Shown piece after piece: positions 399-9,513 of a DNA stretch of 64,000 nucleotides. Position 1 is the stretch's first letter. Each line of letters opens with the position of its first letter. The notes below the pieces were generated by a model. The model saw only the letters and a program-made list of their open reading frames with translations. It searched no databases and was not told the origin of the DNA. A program made the position numbers and the translations under genes. The stretch is from the NCBI GenBank assembly GCA_048500355.1, contig JASNYD010000006.1, positions 544,211 through 608,210 of the forward strand. The letters run 5' to 3'. Source of the DNA: Kofleriaceae bacterium (GTDB lineage: Bacteria; Myxococcota_A; Polyangia; Haliangiales; Haliangiaceae).

Positions 399-752
399 AT
401 GCGCATGAACAAGCTTCTCTCGCTCCTGGTCGTCTCGCTCGTCGCCCTGCCGGTCGCGGCGTGGGCCGACGCTCCCCGTCACGTCATCAACGACAGCGGG
501 GTCACCACCACCCTCGACTGCGGGGCCGGCGGCGACGTGGTCCTGAACGGCAGCGCCGCCGAGCTGACCATCACCGGCGCCTGCGCCAAGATCGTCGTCA
601 ACGGCAGCCGCAACACGGTGGCCCTCGACGCCGTCGACAAGGTCCAGCTCAACGGCAGCGCCAACACCGTGACGTGGAAGAAGGGCTGGAAGAAGAAGGC
701 GCCCAAGGTGGTCAAGCTCGGCACCGGCAACAAGACCGGCAAGGTGAAGTGA
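399..752 (+). CDS. small secreted protein (DUF3060-like fold suggested by repeated VxNGSxNTV motifs)
   Basis: ATG at 399 (MRMNKLLSLLVVSLVALPVAAWA signal peptide). Lys-rich C-terminus and repeated (V)(L/V)NGS(A/R)N(T)V motifs. The longer upstream extension of ORF 132..752 is not protein-like. Confidence 0.6.
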   Translation: MRMNKLLSLLVVSLVALPVAAWADAPRHVINDSGVTTTLDCGAGGDVVLNGSAAELTITGACAKIVVNGSRNTVALDAVDKVQLNGSANTVTWKKGWKKKAPKVVKLGTGNKTGKVK

Positions 753-785: not shown

Positions 786-1835
786 TCAGGGCCCGGGCGG
801 TCGCGGACAGCCGCGGACGCCGACCACGCCGCGCCGGGTGGTCGGCATCGGCGCGTTGAAGTTGCCGCCGACGACCCAGGCCCGGCCGGCGGGGTCGAGC
901 CACGCGCCGTGGAGATCGACGCCGGTGGGCGCGGCGGCGCGCTCGTCGCGCCACGCCCCGGTCGCGCGATCCCAGCGCAGCTTGAGGCCGGCGTTGCCGA
1001 CGACGAGGACGCCGGGGTCGCCGCAGGTCACGCCGCTGGCGACGCTGCCCAGCGCCGGCTCGGCGCGGCGGGCCCAGCGCGCGCCGTCCCAGGCGTACAG
1101 GCCCTGCCCGGCCACGGCGTAGACCTCGTCGCGGGCGCAGCCGTGGACGGTGAGCGCCGGCGCCGGCGTCGCCAGCTCGGCCGAGTGATCGACGAAGGCG
1201 GCGCCGTCCCAGCGCAGCATCGTCCCGCCCTCGCCCGAGATCCAGACGTCGTCGGCGCCGCTGCCCCAGACCTTGAACAGGGTCGCGCCGCGGGCCGGGA
1301 CGCCGGGCGGCGCGGCGAAGGCGGCGCCGTCCCAGCGCAGCACCAGGTCGTCCTCGGCGTCGGCGCCGCCGCCGGGTACGCCGCCGACCAGCCACACGTC
1401 GTCGCCGGCGCTGCCCCACACGCCGTAGAGGGTGGCGGCGGTGGCCACCCGATCGACCGCGACCGCCTCGCCGCGGAGGCGCACCACCAGGCCGCGCTCC
1501 CCCACCATCCAGGTCGTGCCGTCGGGCGCGCTCCACACCCACCACAGACTGTCGTCGCCGGCGGCGGCGAGCGACGGGCGGGTCCAGCGCGCGCCGTCCC
1601 AGCGCGCGGCCAGCGGTCCACCCAGGCCGAGGCCGCCGCCCACCACCCACACGTCGTCGGCGGTGGTGCCCTGCACCGCCAGCACCGCCGCGTCGAGCTC
1701 GGCCACGGTCGCCCACCCGGCGCAGTCGTCGTCGCCGGGGCAGCCGGCGCTGCCCAGGCCGAGCCCGAGCGCCACCGCCAGCGCGCGCGGGCGGCCGCCG
1801 GCGCGCCGTGTCCGGCCCGCGGGCGCCGGCCTCAC
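786..1835 (-). CDS. beta-propeller-type repeat lipoprotein (repeated DDVW(V/L/I)(V/S)GG / LRWDGA motifs)
   Basis: GTG start at 1835..1833 overlaps the TGA stop of the upstream gene (GTGA). Signal peptide VRPAPAGRTRRAGGRPRALAVALGLGLGSAGC with a lipobox Cys. At least 5 repeats of xxDDVWxVGxxG...RWDG(A)xW; stop at 786. Confidence 0.55.
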   Translation of the reverse strand: MRPAPAGRTRRAGGRPRALAVALGLGLGSAGCPGDDDCAGWATVAELDAAVLAVQGTTADDVWVVGGGLGLGGPLAARWDGARWTRPSLAAAGDDSLWWVWSAPDGTTWMVGERGLVVRLRGEAVAVDRVATAATLYGVWGSAGDDVWLVGGVPGGGADAEDDLVLRWDGAAFAAPPGVPARGATLFKVWGSGADDVWISGEGGTMLRWDGAAFVDHSAELATPAPALTVHGCARDEVYAVAGQGLYAWDGARWARRAEPALGSVASGVTCGDPGVLVVGNAGLKLRWDRATGAWRDERAAAPTGVDLHGAWLDPAGRAWVVGGNFNAPMPTTRRGVVGVRGCPRPPGP

Positions 1836-2472
1836 GCCCCGGGCCCCGGCGCCACCCCGGCGTCGCCCGGCTCCGGGTCGGTCGGGCACGCGCCGCCGAG
1901 CTCGTAGTCGCTGTCGCACTCGCACTCGCACTCGTCGAGCTGCTCGGCCAGGCCGCAGCGCGGACGCACCGTCAGGCTGGTCTCGGCCATCCGCCCACCC
2001 GGCTCCTCGAGGCGCAGCTCGAGGCGCCAGCTCGCGCCGTCGACGTCGCGGGCGGCGGCGGCGTTGGGGCACGCCGGCACGTTGGCCAGGTCGTCGAAGG
2101 GCGAGGCGACGTGGCCCCAGCCGTCGCTGCCGGCGACCAGCCGCGCCGGTCGCTGCTCGAGCGCGATCACCTGCATCGTCGCCGGATCGCGGAGCGCGGC
2201 GGTGAGCTGCAGGGCGCAGCCGTCGACGTTGCGGGCGCGCACGCCGACGAAGATCACCTTGCCGCCCTGGAGCGGCCGCACCAGGTCGACCGCGCCGCCG
2301 TCGACCAGCTCGACCACGGCGCCGCCGTCGGCCGGCCAGTGCACCGCCACCACCTCGATCGGCAGCGCGCGGTCGCCGATGGGGCAGCTCGTCGGGGCGT
2401 CGTCGCCGCAGGCCACGGCCGCCGCCCCGGCCGCGAGGAGCGCGGCGCCGCGCCCCGGTCGGCTCAGAAGCA
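1832..2472 (-). CDS. lipoprotein with Cys-rich C-terminus (ECECECDSDYELGGAC)
   Basis: Only a TTG (2472..2470) gives a lipoprotein signal, MLLSRPGRGAALLAAGAAAVAC-GDD; there is no in-frame ATG. Ends TGA at 1832, overlapping the next gene start. The start codon is uncertain. Confidence 0.45.
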
Positions 2473-3516
2473 AGCGATGTCCTCGGTCCGCGGGTAGTAG
2501 TACAGGAAGACGTTGCAGTGCTCGCTGGTCTCGACGATGGGACCGAACGTGTAGCAGCAGTCGTTGGCCTGCAGCGGATCCCGGGCGTCGACCTCGGCGC
2601 AGCCGAGCTCGGGCTCGCGCCACCGATACTCGCACGTCCACCAGATCCCGCCGCCGCGCGGCAGGAGCAGCTCGAGGCCGTTCGCCATCTCGGGCTCGGC
2701 CCAGTCGTCGCTGACGTAGAAGCGGTCGGCGTCGGGCGGCCGCGTCGTCGACTGGCCGTCCCAGGCGTAGACGCTGAAGCGGCGGCCGCGCGAGTGGAAG
2801 TGACCGTTGACCGCGGCCACCCAGTGGTTGCCGTCGGGCATCGAGCAGGTCCCGGAGAAGGTCGGCGGCGGCGTCGACCGGCAGATGCGGATGTTCTGCT
2901 GGGTCGCGAACAGCGTCCCCATCTCGATCGTGTCGTCGCGGCTGCGGTGGAGGTTGACGCCGGCGCGGCCGCGGAACGGCGTCTCCTGGGTGCTGGCGTT
3001 GACGTAGTGGACCTGCAGCATGAGGCGCTCGCCGGCGGTGAAGCGGGTGGCGACGTCGTCGGGCAGGCGCCACTCGTAGACCGGGCTCTCCACCGACGAC
3101 TGCTGGGAGTTGGCGACCAGCGGCCAGGTCGCCCAGTTGGCCGAGTTCCAGCACGGGCCGCCGCGGATGACGGTGCCGGCGACGCCGCCCAGATCCACCG
3201 GCTCGCCGGCGGCGGGATCGAGGCCGACCACGGTGCCGACCCGGAACAGGTTGAGGTGGTGGCTGCCCGGGTTGAGCGCGAGCGCGAAGCGATCGACCCA
3301 CAGCGTGTCCGCGGCCTGGGGCGGGACCTCGAAGAAGTAGCAGTCCTGGAGCTCGGCGCCGGCCGCCACCTCGAACTCGGGCGTGCGCACCCACACCCCC
3401 TCGTCGGCGGTGAGCGGTTCGAGGTACCAGGGCTCGAAGCCGGAGAGGTTGTCGCCGCAGGCGGCGACGAGGCCGGCCGCGGCAACCGCAGCCGCGAGGA
3501 CGGAGGCGCGCACCAT
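2464..3516 (-). CDS. lipoprotein with copper type II ascorbate-dependent monooxygenase-like (PHM/DBH-like) His motifs
   Basis: Clean 350-aa ORF with normal amino-acid composition and signal MVRASVLAAAVAAAGLVAAC-GDN. His spacing GSHHLNLF ... QVHYVN ... NGHFHSRG ... EPEMANG resembles CuH (HH..H) and CuM (HxH..M) sites of PHM/DBH-family monooxygenases. The family assignment is inferred. Confidence 0.65.
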   Translation of the reverse strand: MVRASVLAAAVAAAGLVAACGDNLSGFEPWYLEPLTADEGVWVRTPEFEVAAGAELQDCYFFEVPPQAADTLWVDRFALALNPGSHHLNLFRVGTVVGLDPAAGEPVDLGGVAGTVIRGGPCWNSANWATWPLVANSQQSSVESPVYEWRLPDDVATRFTAGERLMLQVHYVNASTQETPFRGRAGVNLHRSRDDTIEMGTLFATQQNIRICRSTPPPTFSGTCSMPDGNHWVAAVNGHFHSRGRRFSVYAWDGQSTTRPPDADRFYVSDDWAEPEMANGLELLLPRGGGIWWTCEYRWREPELGCAEVDARDPLQANDCCYTFGPIVETSEHCNVFLYYYPRTEDIACF

Positions 3517-3592: not shown

Positions 3593-4438
3593 TCACAGGC
3601 AGGCGACGAAGGCCCGCTCCACCGAGCCGGCGTAGCCGCCGCCGAAGAGGACGACGTGAACGAGCAGCGGGTAGAGCTGCCACAGCGGCACGCGCTCGTC
3701 CCAGCCCGGCTCGAGGGGGAAGGCCTCGTCGTAGGCGGCGAGGGTCCGCGGCTCGAGGCCGCCGAACAGCGCCAGCATCGCCAGGTCGACCTCGCGCGGG
3801 CCGCCGTAGACCGCCGGGTCGATCAGCGCCGGCGCGCCGCCGCTGACCAGCACGTTGCCGCTCCACAGGTCGCCGTGCAGCCGCGCCGGCGGCTCGGCCG
3901 GCGCCAGCGCGTCGGCGCGCGCGGCCAGCTCGTCCACCGCGCGCCGCCAGCGGGCGGGCCCACGGCCCAGCGCGATCGCGCGCTCGACCATCGGCGCCAG
4001 CCGGCGCTGGAACCACAGCTCGTCCCAGGTCGCGGCCGGCGCGTTGTCCTGGGGCAGGGTGGCGATGAAGCTCGGCGCGTCGAGGCCGAAGCGCGGCGCG
4101 CCGGCGCGATGGAGCGCGGCCAGGCCGCGACCGAGGGCGGCCGCGGTGTCGGCGCCGGCCGGCCCCGGCGCGAGCCACTCGAGGACCAGCGCGTGCGCGT
4201 CGTGGCCGAGCACGGCGGGCACCCGCAGCGCGCCGGCCGCCGCCAGCCAGGCCAGGCCGTGGGCCTCGGCGGCGAACAGGCCCGCGGGCGGCGCCGGGTC
4301 GTGCTTCACGAAGACGGTGCGGCCGTCGGTGAGCTCGGCGCGGAACGCCTGGTTGATGTCGCCGCCGTGGACCCGCTCGAGCCGCCGCGCCGCGGTGCCG
4401 GTGATCGCGACCAGCGACGCCTCGACGGCGGCGCTCAC
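3593..4438 (-). CDS. fructosamine kinase family protein (aminoglycoside phosphotransferase-like kinase)
   Basis: GTG start 4438..4436 overlaps the TGA stop of the upstream LMW-PTP (GTGA). Motifs LHGDLWSGNVL and DPAVYGGPREVDLAML are typical of the fructosamine-3-kinase/APH fold. Confidence 0.75.
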   Translation of the reverse strand: MSAAVEASLVAITGTAARRLERVHGGDINQAFRAELTDGRTVFVKHDPAPPAGLFAAEAHGLAWLAAAGALRVPAVLGHDAHALVLEWLAPGPAGADTAAALGRGLAALHRAGAPRFGLDAPSFIATLPQDNAPAATWDELWFQRRLAPMVERAIALGRGPARWRRAVDELAARADALAPAEPPARLHGDLWSGNVLVSGGAPALIDPAVYGGPREVDLAMLALFGGLEPRTLAAYDEAFPLEPGWDERVPLWQLYPLLVHVVLFGGGYAGSVERAFVACL

Positions 4439-4926
4439 GACCCGGATCCGGCGCCGGCCAGCCGCGGGTGCAGCGCGGCGACCAGCCCGGCGCACGCGGC
4501 CTCGCAGATGTCGAGGACGCGCTCGAAGCCGTCGTCGCCGCCGTAGTACGGGTCGGGCACCTCGGCGCCGTCGGGCGCGTCGGGGTCGTAGCTGCGGAGC
4601 AGCCGGACCCGGGCGCGGGCCGCGGCGTCGGGCGCCAGCCCCAGCACCGCGCGCTGGTTGGCGGCGTCCATGGTCAGGATGAGGTCGAAGCGCTCGAAGT
4701 CCACGCGCTGGAACTGGCGAGCGCGGTGCGCGAGCTCGATCCCGCGCGCCCGCGCCGCCGCCCGGGTCCGCGGGTCCGGCAGCTCGCCGACGTGCCAGCC
4801 GCCGGTGCCGGCGCTGTCGACGGTCACCCGCCCGGCGAGCCCGGCGCGCTCCAGGGTGAGGCGCATCACCCCCTCGGCGGTGGGCGAGCGACAGATGTTG
4901 CCCAGGCAGACGAAGCAGATCCTCAC
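4435..4926 (-). CDS. low-molecular-weight protein-tyrosine phosphatase
   Basis: N-terminus [20 protein letters not shown] carries the P-loop CX5R(S) signature. A DPYYG motif lies near the C-terminus. Confidence 0.85.
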
Positions 4927-4943: not shown

Positions 4944-6314
4944 ATGGCGGCGATGCGCCGAGCCGCCCTCTCCCTGCTCGTGCTCTGGCTCGGCGCCTGC
5001 GCCTTCGAGCCGCGCGGCGGCGATCCCGACGCCACCGCCACCGACGCCGCCACCGACGCGCCGGACGACGACGGCGACGCCGCCGTCCCCGACGCCGCCA
5101 CCGACGCCGCCGTCCCCGACGCCGCCGTCCCCGACGCCGCCGTCCCCGACGCCGCCGTCCCCGACGCCGCCACCGACGCCGCCGTCCCCGACGCCGCCAC
5201 CGACGCCGCCGTCGACGCCAGTCCCGACGCGCCGCCGCTGGTCGACATCGCCTACCTGCCGCCGGCGGCCGAGGTGCCCGGCACCGGCGACGTGACCATC
5301 AGCGGGCTGATCACGATCGACACCTCGCCCACCGGCTCGCGCCCGAACCTCGGCGCCGGCACGTCGTACTCGGTGGCGACCCCGACCGGGGGCGGCGCCG
5401 ACATCGTCGTCCTCCACGTCGACGACCTGACCATCACCGCCGCCGGCACGCTGCGCGTGGTCGGCGCCCGACCGTTCGCGATCGTCGCCGGTGGCGCGGT
5501 CGTGATCAGCGGCAGGCTCGACGCCAGCGCCACCGGCACCACCGTCGCTGGCCCCGGCGGCGGCGGCCCCAGCGCCGGCACCGGCGAGGGCGGCGACGGC
5601 AGCCACGCCGGCACGCGCACCGACAGCGGCGGCGGCGGCGCTGGCCACGGGACGAGCGGCGCGCGCGGCGGCAACGCCACCTGCAACCTCGGCTGCCTCC
5701 CGAACGTCGTGACCGCCGGCGGCGCCGGCGGCGTCGCGTACAACGCCGGGCTCACCCAGCTCGTCGGCGGCTCGGGCGGCGGCAACGCGGCGGCGGCCAG
5801 CGGCACCTGCCCCGGCCAGCCCGGCGGCGCCGGCGGCGGCGCCGTGCTGATCTACGCCGCGGGCTCGATCACCGTCGCCGGCGTCATCGCCGCGCACGGC
5901 GGCGGCGGCGGCCGCGGCGTCGCCTGCTCGGGCACGGTGTCGACCGCCGGGGCCGGCGGCGGCTCGGGCGGTCAGCTCGACCTGCAGTCGCCGTCGATCA
6001 CGGTCAGCGGTCAGATCGGCGCCAACGGCGGCGGCGGCGGCGGTGGCTCCGACGGCAGCGACGGCGACGGCCAGCCCGGCCAGGACGGGCGCGACGACGG
6101 CAACCAGGCCAGCGGCGGCGCCGGCAGCGGCAACGTGGGCGGCGACGGCGGCGCGGGCGGTGCCGGCGCCTCCGGTCCCGGCCAGGGCGAGGACATGGGC
6201 AACGATCAGAACGGCGGGGGCGGCGGCGGCGCGGTCGGACGGGTCACGATCCGCCACCGCGGCGCCCAGCCCACCGTCGCCTCGAGTCCGCCTCCCACCT
6301 ACATCCCCTACTGA
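4944..6314 (+). CDS. glycine-rich lipoprotein, paralog A of a tandem triplicated family (Cys-AFEPRG N-terminus, D/A pentapeptide-repeat linker, GGA(V/I/L) motifs)
   Basis: [26 protein letters not shown] lipobox. An in-frame 15-nt repeat encodes (AAVPD/AATD)n at 5085-5230. Conserved block [15 protein letters not shown] ... [15 protein letters not shown] ... [22 protein letters not shown] ... GRVTIRHRG. Confidence 0.7.
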
Positions 6315-6365: not shown

Positions 6366-7784
6366 ATGTGGCCGTACCGCGTCGCCCCGGCGATCCTGGC
6401 CCTGGCGCTCCTGGCGCCCGCCTGCGCCTTCGAGCCCCGCGGCGAGGAGCTCGCGGCCGACGCCGCCCTGGCCGACGGCGCGGTCGACGCGCGCCCCGAC
6501 GACGGCGGAGGCGACGACGACGCGGCGGCCATCGACGCGAGCGTGATCGACGCCGGCCTCACCGACGCCCGCCCCGACGCCGCGATCGTCGACGCCGCGA
6601 TCACCGACGCCCGCCCCGACGCCGCGATCGTCGACGCCGGGGTCACCGACGCCCGGCCGCCCGACGCCGGCGTCACCGACGCCCGGCCGCCCGACGCCGG
6701 CGTCGACGCCGGCGCGGTCGACGACATCGTCCACGTCCGGGCGATCGACGAGCACCTCGGCACCGGCGACTGGACCCTGACCGCGAACGCGAGCGTGCGG
6801 ACGTTCGGCACCGGCGCTGGCTTCGACGTCCCGCTACCGGCCGGGGTGACCTTCGAGAACGCGCCCCAGGATCCGAGCGAGCCGACGCTCGCGATCCTCC
6901 GCGTCCGCCACCTCACGATCGCCAGCGGGGTCACCCTGCGCGTGGTCGGCGCCGCGCCGTTCGTCGTCATCGCCGAGAGCGTGACGCTCTCCGGCGTCAT
7001 CGACGCCGGCGCCCGCCTCGGCGTGGCCGGCGGCGGCGCCACGGCCGGGATCGGCGTCGGCGGCGACGGCGCGCACCGCGGCCTCTACTCCGACGGCGGC
7101 GGCGGCGGCGGCAGCTTCGCCACCAGCGGCGGCCGCGGCGGTAACGCCTTCTGCGACACCGGCTGCACCCCGAACACGACCGCGCCCGGCGGCGCCGGCG
7201 GCGCGCTCCACGGCGACGCCATGCTGACCACGCTCCAGGGCGGCTCGGCCGGCGGACGAGGAGCGGCCCCCGCCGGCTGCACGATGGGGCCCGTCGGCGC
7301 CGGCGGCGGCGCGGTCCAGCTCTACGCCCGCACGTCGATCGTCATCGGCGCGGGTGGCGGCGTCAACGCCGGCGGGGGTGGCGGCGCCCGGGGCGAGCAG
7401 TGCCTCGGCAACTGGGGCGCGGCCCACGGCGGCGGCGCCGGCGGCGCCATCTACCTGCAGTCGCCGAGCGTGGTCAGCGGCGGCGTCCTCGCCGCCAACG
7501 GCGGCGGCGGCGGCGGCAGCGCCGGGCAGGGCGGCCCGGGCCGGAGCGGCAGCGACGGCGCGCTCGGCACCACGCCCGCGCCCGGCGGCGCCGGCAACGG
7601 CAACCTGAGCGCGCGCGGCGGCGACGGCGCCGCGGGCACGACCGCCGCGGGCAACGGCGGCGACGTCGGCAACGCCGGCAACGGCGGCGGCGGCGGCGGC
7701 GGGGCCGGCCGCATCGTCATCCGCCACCGCGGCACGGTCATCGCCGGCACCACCAGCCCCCCCGCGGTGACGGCGGCCTACTGA
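6366..7784 (+). CDS. glycine-rich lipoprotein, paralog B
   Basis: [27 protein letters not shown]; linker (DARPDAAIVDA)n. Shares [57 protein letters not shown] and GRIVIRHRG with paralogs A and C. Confidence 0.7.
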   Translation: MWPYRVAPAILALALLAPACAFEPRGEELAADAALADGAVDARPDDGGGDDDAAAIDASVIDAGLTDARPDAAIVDAAITDARPDAAIVDAGVTDARPPDAGVTDARPPDAGVDAGAVDDIVHVRAIDEHLGTGDWTLTANASVRTFGTGAGFDVPLPAGVTFENAPQDPSEPTLAILRVRHLTIASGVTLRVVGAAPFVVIAESVTLSGVIDAGARLGVAGGGATAGIGVGGDGAHRGLYSDGGGGGGSFATSGGRGGNAFCDTGCTPNTTAPGGAGGALHGDAMLTTLQGGSAGGRGAAPAGCTMGPVGAGGGAVQLYARTSIVIGAGGGVNAGGGGGARGEQCLGNWGAAHGGGAGGAIYLQSPSVVSGGVLAANGGGGGGSAGQGGPGRSGSDGALGTTPAPGGAGNGNLSARGGDGAAGTTAAGNGGDVGNAGNGGGGGGGAGRIVIRHRGTVIAGTTSPPAVTAAY

Positions 7785-9004
7785 TGCGGCGGCGCGGCTC
7801 GTCCACGATCGTGGCGCCCGGCCTCGCGCTGGCGCTCACGCTCACCGGGGGGTGCGCCTTCGAGCCGCGGGGCGCGCTCGACGACGACGCGGCCGCGCCC
7901 GACGCGCCGGGGGACGACGTCGACGCCGCGACCACCGACGCGCTCGAACCCGACGCCGCGCCGCACCAGGTCGCCCACGTCGCCAGCGCCGACGCCACCC
8001 TGGGCAGCGAGGATCTGGTCTTCGACGCCGCGGCCACGATCGACACCGGCGCGCTCACGGTCACCGGGATCACGCTGCCGGTCGGGGTCGAGCTGGTCGC
8101 GGCCGCCCAGAGCCCGAGCGGCCCCGAGCTCGCCCTCCTGCGCGTGCGCGGCCTGACCCTCGCCGAGGGCGTGGTCGTCCGCGCGATCGGCTCGCGCCCC
8201 CTGGTGATCCTCGCCGAGACCGCGAGCATCGCCGGCACCCTCGACGCCGGCGCCCGCCGCGATCAACCCGGCGCCGGTGGCTCCGGACCGCGCGGTGGCA
8301 TCGGCCGCGGCGGCGACGGCGTGCGCGACGGCAGCTACGCCGACAGCGGCGGCGGCGGCGGCGGCTTCGGTCAGCCCGGCGCCAAGGGTGGCGACGCCAG
8401 CGGCGCCGCCGGCGGCGAGGGCGGCCTGGCCTTCGGCGACCCCAACCTCGACCTCCTGCTCGGCGGCGCCGGGGGCGGCGGCGCGTCGTCGAGCGGCTGC
8501 GACGCCACCACCGCCGGCGCCGGCGGCGGCGCGCTCCAGATCTACGCCCGCACGTCGATCGAGATCACCACCACCGGCGCGATCAACGCCGGCGGCGGCG
8601 GCGGCGGCGGCGGCCGGAGCTGCTCGTTGCAGTACCTGGCCGGGACCGGCGGCGGCTCCGGCGGCGCCATCTACCTGCAGTCGCCGGTCATCGCCAGCGC
8701 GGGCATCCTCGCCGCCAACGGCGGCGGCGGCGGCGGCGGCGCCAGCAACGACCACGGCGGCCCCGGCGGCGACGGCACCGCGACCACCGCCCGCGCCACC
8801 GGCGGCACCTCCGGCGGCGCCACCTACGGCGCGGTCGGCGGCCGGGGCGCCGCCCAGGTCGGCGACGCCACCGCCGGCGACAACGGGCCCAGCCTCGGCA
8901 ACGGCGGCGGCGGCGGGGGCGGCGGCGGCCGCATCGTCGTCAGCTACCGCGACACGCTCGAGGAGGGCACCGTCAGCCCGTCGGCCGTCAAGCGGCAGTT
9001 CTGA
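7784..9004 (+). CDS. glycine-rich lipoprotein, paralog C
   Basis: ATG 7784 overlaps the TGA stop of paralog B (TGATG). [30 protein letters not shown]; shares [59 protein letters not shown] and GRIVVSYR. Confidence 0.7.
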
Positions 9005-9053
9005 CCTGGCGTCCGGGGTCCGAGGCCCGACGGCCGACGGCCCTTCGACCGCG

Positions 9054-9486
9054 GAACCCGAGCCCGGAGCCGAACCCGAGCCCGAGCCCGAATCCGAATC
9101 CGAACCCGAGCCCGAATCCAGGCCCGAATCCGAATCCGAACCCGAGCCCGAATCCGAGCCCGAATCCGAACCCGAATCCGAGCCCGAACCCGGATCCGAA
9201 CCCGAGCCCGAATCCGAACCCGAGCCCGAGCCCGAATCCGAATCCGAACCCGGATCCGAACCCGAACCCGAACCCGAACCCGGATCCGAATCCGAACCCG
9301 AATCCGAATCCGAACCCGAGCCCGGAGCCGAACCCGAACCCGAATCCGAATCCGAACCCGAATCTGAGCCCGAGCCCGGAGCCGAACCCGAACCCGAATC
9401 CGAATCCGAACCCGAATCCGAACCCGAACCCGAGCCCGAACCCGAATCCGAACCCGAGTCCGAGTCCGAGCCCGAGCCCGAACCCG
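9054..9486. repeat. tandem hexanucleotide array (GARNCC)n, about 72 units (gaaccc/gagccc/gaatcc/ggatcc/ggagcc/gagtcc)
   Basis: Read directly: the array lies between convergent genes (paralog C stop 9004, HNH stop 9514). Every frame translates to low-complexity dipeptide runs (EP/SE/PN/GS/DS) with no credible start codon. Confidence 0.85.
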
Positions 9487-9513
9487 ATCGTCCGTCTCCC
9501 GGACGCCCCCAGC

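Follow-up and report, generated by a model that had tools for sequence, protein, structure and literature searches.

The DNA considered here, a stretch of 64,000 nucleotides (nt) from contig JASNYD010000006.1 of a Kofleriaceae bacterium (assembly GCA_048500355.1), which we call the window, carries on its minus strand three consecutive co-directional open reading frames (ORFs), G1, G2 and G3. Sequence comparison and structure modelling indicate that these genes probably specify an extracytoplasmic dicopper oxidative enzyme, G1, both of whose predicted copper sites would consist of three histidines (His3), together with two non-catalytic partners, G2 and G3. G1 resembles the catalytic core of the dicopper oxygenases peptidylglycine alpha-hydroxylating monooxygenase (PHM) and dopamine beta-hydroxylase (DBH), the enzymes with which animals amidate their peptide hormones and produce noradrenaline. 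The genes and their junctions are arranged as follows (product lengths in amino acids, aa):

2464-3516, minus strand: G1, a 350-aa lipoprotein with a divergent PHM/DBH fold, two domains and two predicted His3 copper sites (ORF, public gene call, AlphaFold2 model, Foldseek and profile searches)
3457-3516, minus strand: signal peptide and lipobox of G1 (MVRASVLAAAVAAAGLVAAC), with the codon of Cys20 at 3459-3457, as read from the sequence
2464-2473, minus strand: overlap of the G1 stop with the TTG start of G2, 10 nt (TTGCTTCTGA), with GAGG 7 nt 5' of the TTG
1832-2473, minus strand: G2, a 213-aa lipoprotein with an immunoglobulin (Ig)-like beta-sandwich at aa 40-173 and a Cys-rich C-terminal segment
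1832-1835, minus strand: overlap of the G2 stop with the G3 start, GTGA, 4 nt
786-1835, minus strand: G3, a 349-aa lipoprotein, read as a Ycf48-like seven-bladed beta-propeller (sequence, public gene call, homologue alignment and profile)

The window is very G+C-rich, with 70-83% over its first 12 kb. Public gene calls made independently for three contigs with an identical G1 protein reproduce the 350-, 213- and 349-aa products as well as their overlaps; the closest genome record is a metagenome-assembled genome (MAG) of an uncultured deltaproteobacterium, isolate PRO4, which is 99% identical, and the named relatives belong to Kofleriaceae, Haliangiales and Polyangiaceae. G1 starts with ATG at 3516 and stops with TGA at 2466-2464. 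The start of G2 is the TTG at 2473, the sole start that gives a signal peptide, and its homologues likewise open with MLL or LLL, while G3 starts with GTG at 1835-1833, within a GTGA whose bases are partly common to the G2 stop at 1834-1832. The original prediction, made from the letters of this DNA, had described three overlapping minus-strand lipoprotein genes at these positions, a probable TTG start of G2 and a TGA of G2 embedded in the GTG start of G3, all of which agrees with the ORFs, the public gene calls and the homologues, but the 8 nt that it gave for the overlap of G1 and G2 have to be corrected to 10 (2473-2464). A scan for promoters and terminators, in DNA of >75% G+C, found nothing. 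The N-terminal signal peptides end in the lipoboxes LVAAC (G1), AVAC (G2) and SAGC (G3), as read from the sequence; the lipobox cysteine is invariant in 42 homologues of G1 (C20), kept in at least 90% of those of G2 (C22) and invariant or nearly so in those of G3, and canonical L-[AS]-[GA]-C boxes are common among the homologues of all three. To judge from these N termini, G1, G2 and G3 are bacterial lipoproteins with signal peptide and lipobox.

The AlphaFold2 model of G1, built on an alignment of 42 sequences, reached a pLDDT of 86.6 and a pTM of 0.84, and rat PHM and human DBH account for all of its best 31 Foldseek matches in the PDB (E = 2e-13 to 2.5e-10, TM 0.45-0.67), the next being unrelated viral jelly rolls with E >8e-6 and TM <0.3. 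Similarly, a hidden Markov model (HMM) of G1 and 39 diverse relatives, into which no PHM sequence had entered, matched the rat PHM catalytic core with 60.9 bits (E = 1.1e-15 in a PDB-sized search space) across both domains and with every ligand motif aligned; the PHM sequence used was checked to be identical to PDB 4e4z_A. Model and profile bear out the prediction of a PHM/DBH-like two-domain protein, and on their evidence G1 is genuinely homologous to the catalytic core of PHM and DBH, although it has diverged very far from it. Sequence searches of the PDB sequences with G1 or with its 42-member profile returned nothing meaningful, the PHM sequence being reached by the broader superfamily profile only, and hhalign placed the first five histidines of the 42-member profile in register with the lone PHM sequence at a probability of only 3.8%, a low value because the template was a single sequence. 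Pfam recognises Cu2_monoox_C in G1 below threshold (16.6 bits against a cutoff of 23, aa 323-350 only) and does not match Cu2_monooxygen, and NCBIfam gave no match for any of G1, G2 and G3. The profile check suggested with the prediction was answered in two ways, namely sub-threshold by Pfam and positively by the superfamily profile and by modelling. Weak Cu2_monoox_C matches occur in 36 of the 42 family members, and one relative with the motif EHCN, P0201, which the G1 profile matches at E = 6e-31, clears the Pfam threshold. The 120 database homologues of G1 that were listed are all 'hypothetical' and without Pfam domain, and when 1.84 billion cluster representatives were searched with HMMER, the G1 profile matched 971 clusters (50% identity) with E <=1e-3.

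Some distant relatives (P0227, P0241, P0267) end in a segment resembling a Lamin Tail Domain (LTD), which is sub-threshold for Pfam LTD. A cytochrome c fusion, for which weak PSCyt1 matches in P0214 and P0221 made these relatives candidates, was rejected, since no CxxCH is present there or in any other long relative.

PHM binds one copper at an electron-transfer site (CuH) and one at the O2/substrate site (CuM), and the corresponding residues of G1 are the following:

3256-3261, minus strand: H86-H87 (GSHH), equivalent in the alignments to the PHM CuH ligands H107/H108 and kept in 120/120 close homologues
3007-3009, minus strand: H170 (LMLQVHY), equivalent in the alignments to the PHM CuH ligand H172, with Q168 equivalent to PHM Q170
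2794-2802, minus strand: H239-F-H241 (NGHFHSRG), equivalent to the PHM CuM ligands H242/H244, with N237 replacing PHM R240
2518-2520, minus strand: H333 (EHCN), at the position of the PHM CuM ligand M314 (EMCN), a natural Met-to-His replacement

Besides these ligands, N335 of G1 aligns with PHM N316. The original prediction had allowed that the histidines might not be conserved among homologues; of 120 close homologues, 119-120 retain each of the six, H239 and H241 included. The position of H333 is His in 119/120 of these, and among cluster representatives it is His in 80 and Met in 7. Among the full-length cluster representatives at 50% identity, 67 have all six positions occupied; in these the whole pattern reads HHHHHH in 51 and the canonical HHHHHM in 7, and the conservation of the six-His pattern is, as far as such alignments can tell, more than chance. 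Of the HH...H / HxH...M pattern that had been proposed for the two copper sites, HH...H and HxH stand and the terminal M does not, since H333 aligns with M314, so that the pattern becomes HH...H / HxH...H. Within the G1 clade the position of the CuM methionine is by alignment an invariant His, so both sites would be His3, and H239, H241 and H333 are predicted to cluster at one site.

Two methionines were tried as an alternative Met ligand and rejected: M277, the only invariant Met downstream of HxH, stands opposite a PHM F and varies between F, M and L across the wider superfamily, and M166, which aligns with a PHM V, is likewise unconserved there. A minority of the relatives (P0240, P0247, P0251, P0253, P0255, P0265 and P0270) has the canonical PHM Met (EMC, often with HMH for HFH); among them P0251 is recognised by Pfam Cu2_monoox_C, and several Met-keeping distant relatives possess an additional Cys-rich C-terminal extension. 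With regard to disulfides, G1 contains an even number of non-lipobox cysteines (ten), of which C59/C122, C224/C349 and C295/C334 align with C81-C126, C227-C334 and C293-C315, that is with three of the five PHM disulfides; the pairing in G1 is taken from this alignment.

A scan of species-representative genomes yielded 230 stretches with G1 relatives, mostly from Polyangia, and 80 of these 230 loci provide the linkage counts. A G2 homologue immediately adjoins G1 in 69 of the 77 loci with enough sequence downstream of G1, being situated directly downstream, and often overlapping, in 68 and directly upstream in one. For G3, 66 loci could be assessed, and 34 of them have it as a neighbour: it follows G2 in 26, immediately precedes G1 in 6 and lies close by in the other 2. 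The conservation of the unit in related genomes, which had been proposed as a check, is thereby confirmed for the G1-G2 pair and, at this lower frequency, for G3. Beyond G2 and G3, no further conserved neighbour of the G1 homologues (electron donor, chaperone, regulator or copper-handling gene) was found, and no paralogue of G1, G2 or G3 exists elsewhere in the window. Several MAGs contain two paralogous cassettes (L031 and L034, L017 and L037), and cultured carriers of G1 relatives are Polyangium fumosum DSM 14668 and P. jinanense SDU13. At locus L012 a different Cys/Asp-rich lipoprotein (~7117-7950) is found in the place of G2 after the G1 homologue.

The structure of G3 is readable in its sequence as seven DDVW-type blades of the type [DE]-[DE]-V-[WY]-x-V-G. 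A profile from an alignment of 22 homologues matches the solved Ycf48-like propellers 5ojp, 5ojr, 2xbg and 5oj5 (E = 7e-11 to 2e-9), and Pfam PSII_BNR was found in 1 of the 22 family members. Blades and profile matches agree with the DDVW-repeat beta-propeller of the original prediction, and by these comparisons G3 is a Ycf48-like seven-bladed beta-propeller.

For G2, the AlphaFold2 model (pLDDT 88.8) has generic beta-sandwiches as its only fold matches, and the 70 detectable database homologues include none with a Pfam domain, all named ones being 'hypothetical'. Its invariant residues other than cysteines include D34, Q69, R79, N82, R95, D96, R108, E152 and R161, which are candidates for an interface with G1. 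G2 lacks the His/Cys/His/Met ligands of a cupredoxin, and it is not DOMON-like, DBH (4ZEL) being absent from its fold matches. Its most conspicuous element is the C-terminal tail:

1886-1930, minus strand: C182-x-C184-x-C186 ... C196 tail of G2 (CECECDSDYELGGAC), predicted to be disulfide-bonded from the sequence, the even Cys counts and the joint loss of C184 and C196

The Cys-rich tail ECECECDSDYELGGAC noted earlier is present, from C182 to C196 (nt 1930-1886), and the CxCxC...C motif is kept in most homologues, with C173, C182 and C186 invariant and C184 and C196 conserved in at least 90%. The interpretation of this ECECEC tail as a metal-thiolate motif finds no support in the comparison of homologues: the Glu between the cysteines is unconserved (CRCEC, CLCMC or CKCIC elsewhere), the number of cysteines after the lipobox is even (6, 8 or 10) in nearly all of ~65 homologues, C184 and C196 are lost jointly in one Kofleriaceae subgroup (L013-L029), and the homologues contain no invariant His or Met. 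Because of the even counts, the joint loss and the lack of invariant His or Met, we read the tail as disulfides and not as a metal-thiolate cluster, a cupredoxin or a Met/His chaperone, and its cysteines would be disulfide-bonded.

Upon the observed gene structure, homology and fold, ligand conservation, Met-to-His replacement, linkage and pattern of Cys pairing a mechanism can be proposed, in which copper binding, oxygenase or oxidase chemistry, complex formation and the roles of G2 and G3 are predicted from sequence. In a myxobacterium of Kofleriaceae type (class Polyangia), G1-G2-G3 would be an operon, coupled in translation, whose three products are lipoproteins of the cell envelope. G1 would belong, as a divergent bacterial representative, to the non-coupled dicopper oxygenases of the PHM/DBH superfamily, with two jelly-roll domains that are predicted to hold one copper each, H86/H87/H170 forming the electron-transfer (CuH) site and H239/H241 the O2/substrate (CuM) site together with H333, which stands in the place of the essential Met of PHM and DBH. 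After Sec export, lipidation, formation of five disulfides and copper loading, the mature G1 most likely would oxidise or hydroxylate an extracytoplasmic substrate other than a glycine-extended peptide, with electrons supplied by a periplasmic donor. G2, an Ig-like lipoprotein probably stabilised by disulfides, is most likely a non-catalytic subunit, present in stoichiometric amount, with a part in docking, stabilisation or the presentation of substrate, and G3 most likely a facultative scaffold or assembly partner.

A different role for G2 would follow if its CxCxC...C tail were a Cu(I)-thiolate site and the protein served G1 specifically, by loading it with copper, as a chaperone, or by reducing it, as a redox partner. 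The tight linkage and translational coupling to a putative cuproenzyme, the high conservation of the five cysteines and the presence of CopC among the weak fold matches (E = 1.5e-2) are consistent with such a role, but the even Cys counts, the joint loss of C184 and C196, as is characteristic of two cysteines bonded to each other, the variable intervening Glu and the lack of invariant His or Met point in the other direction. In addition, G2 is exported by Sec to the envelope, where paired cysteines are usually oxidised, and we regard a copper-handling G2 as rather improbable. As to the enzyme itself, several observations weigh against the mechanism outlined above. G1 does not pass the curated Pfam family thresholds (PF01082 and PF03712), and no electron donor (ascorbate system, cytochrome, cupredoxin or DOMON) is encoded near it. 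G2 is missing in 8 of the 77 loci, and three Polyangiaceae loci (L067, L069, L071) have G1 followed directly by G3 without G2, hence G2 is not strictly essential. The residues R240 and Y318, with which PHM binds the peptide carboxylate, are an invariant N237 and an invariant F337 in G1, which therefore, to judge from these positions, is not a peptidylglycine hydroxylase in the strict sense. Finally, the engineered M314H variant of rat PHM binds copper and keeps at most ~5% of the activity (PMC12164859), so that C-H hydroxylation of the PHM type may be beyond a His3 CuM site and G1 could carry out different chemistry. By analogy, the natural His3 site suggests altered, and not merely conserved, chemistry.

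Taken to its end, this line of thought would make G1 no PHM-type hydroxylase, with two His3 sites serving other copper chemistry, either by closure into a coupled binuclear (type-3-like) oxidase centre or by pairing an electron-transfer site with a catalytic His3 site in the manner of copper nitrite reductase. Here the replacement by H333 of a Met needed for PHM activity is joined by Cu(I)-CO frequencies of M314H in the hemocyanin range and by a closed conformer of DBH (all PMC12164859), and by the dominance of the six-His pattern in the bacterial superfamily (51 against 7 with the Met pattern). The proposal is purely inferential, however, the Q168-x-H170-Y motif and the two-domain architecture are typical of non-coupled enzymes, and no nitrogen-cycle or phenol-oxidation genes lie nearby; we consider it unlikely. 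Alternatively, G1 could have no enzymatic function and be a six-His lipoprotein that sequesters copper or another metal, or a PNGase F/PHM-fold binding module, with G2 and G3 as its structural partners in a complex at the surface. In favour of this, genes for a substrate, a donor or a pathway are not linked to it, the partners have generic interaction folds (Ig-like sandwich and beta-propeller), and some MAGs carry several paralogous cassettes. Yet the conserved residues are not scattered histidines but exactly the ligands of the PHM catalytic sites together with Q168, N335 and the E-x-C-N motif, and there are no adjacent copper-resistance genes, which leaves a non-enzymatic G1 very improbable.

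The dicopper oxidative enzyme with non-catalytic partners, which we favour, touches on the distribution of this fold. A comparative-genomics review lists PHM and DBH (DBM) as eukaryote-only cuproproteins (PMC7435645), and the full-text literature searched, whose coverage is incomplete, contained no study of a bacterial PHM/DBH member. The presence of the fold in bacteria is not itself new, since Pfam recognises some of the bacterial relatives already. The novelty lies in the unannotated lipoprotein clade of Polyangia, the dominance of the Met-to-His variant at CuM and the conserved partnership with G2 and G3. The 971 clusters represent a sizeable bacterial superfamily that mostly has His where the animal enzymes have a long-debated Met, and a bacterial homologue with a natural His3 CuM site, soluble and disulfide-stabilised, would allow one to ask what the Met does and what a His3/His3 enzyme performs. 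The conserved partner genes point to a multi-subunit machine of the envelope. We put forward only tentatively, and with considerable doubt, the wider view that the G1 clade and most of the ~1,000-cluster bacterial superfamily represent a natural His3/His3 form of the PHM/DBH fold that carries out oxygen chemistry without the 'essential' CuM Met on an envelope substrate, within a lipoprotein complex that contains a dedicated Ig-like subunit and, in many cases, a Ycf48-like propeller. If this view held, these proteins would constitute a class of bacterial copper oxygenases or oxidases that is new in function, and nature would itself have made the experiment on why PHM and DBH need Met.

The operon is flanked by the following genes:

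3593-4441, minus strand: fructosamine kinase gene, upstream of G1 (Pfam E = 2e-59)
4435-4926, minus strand: low-molecular-weight phosphotyrosine phosphatase gene, upstream of G1
399-752, plus strand: gene of a DUF3060 protein, downstream of G3 and convergent

None of these three neighbours is conserved beside G1 homologues at the loci of relatives. Beyond the left end of the window, on the same contig (L081 15020-20247), two large proteins (931 and 810 aa) give faint matches to Cu-binding_MopE (PF11617); this MopE-like pair is encoded ~2.3 kb past G3, with the DUF3060 gene and one for an acyl-CoA dehydrogenase in between, and its link to copper is putative. On the other side, three tandem paralogous lipoprotein-like genes occupy 4944-6314, 6366-7784 and ~7781-9004 on the plus strand, each with a lipobox ('...ACAFEPRG') at the N terminus, repeats rich in Asp, Ala and Pro and a C-terminal half that is long and rich in glycine, and none with a Pfam match. 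They are followed at ~9000-9500 by a local dip of the G+C content to 0.68 with strong strand asymmetry (GC skew -0.27, AT skew +0.54), a simple short-period repeat that reads, depending on the frame, as runs of GS/DS, PN/PS or EP/ES.

Among known systems, the photosystem II (PSII) assembly factor Ycf48/HCF136 (2XBG, 5OJP) has the seven-bladed propeller in common with G3 (profile E = 7e-11), whereas G3 belongs to a non-photosynthetic myxobacterium, is by its lipobox lipidated and is linked to a PHM-like gene and not to PSII genes. The bacterial proteins P0201 and P0251, which fall within Pfam Cu2_monoox_C, are homologues of G1 (the G1 profile matches them with E = 6e-31 and 2e-20), and P0201 likewise reads EHCN. 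Both clear the Pfam threshold, which the G1 clade does not, and P0251, together with six other representatives, keeps the Met (EMC). The bacterial Cu2_monoox_C relatives also differ from G1 in length and by extra domains (LTD in P0227, P0241 and P0267), and on the short contigs of P0201 and P0251 no G2 or G3 homologue is apparent beside them. DBH, tyramine beta-monooxygenase and MOXD1 (compared as human DBH, 4ZEL) have the same catalytic core fold as G1 (E = 8e-12) and the same His ligands, but DBH keeps the CuM Met, while G1 is devoid of a DOMON or dimerisation domain and G2 is not DOMON-like. The closest likeness in structure is to rat PHMcc (1PHM, 3MLL, 4E4Z), with which G1 has in common the fold of two jelly-roll domains (Foldseek E = 2e-13, TM 0.59/0.66), five His ligands, Q170/Q168, N316/N335, three disulfide positions and an extracytoplasmic or lumenal location. 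At ~14% identity the two differ in the replacement of M314 by H333 and of R240 and Y318 by N237 and F337, and in the two extra Cys pairs of G1. Whereas PHM is part of the bifunctional PAM, G1 is a predicted lipoprotein without ascorbate or cytochrome b561 context that is encoded together with an Ig-like and a propeller partner.

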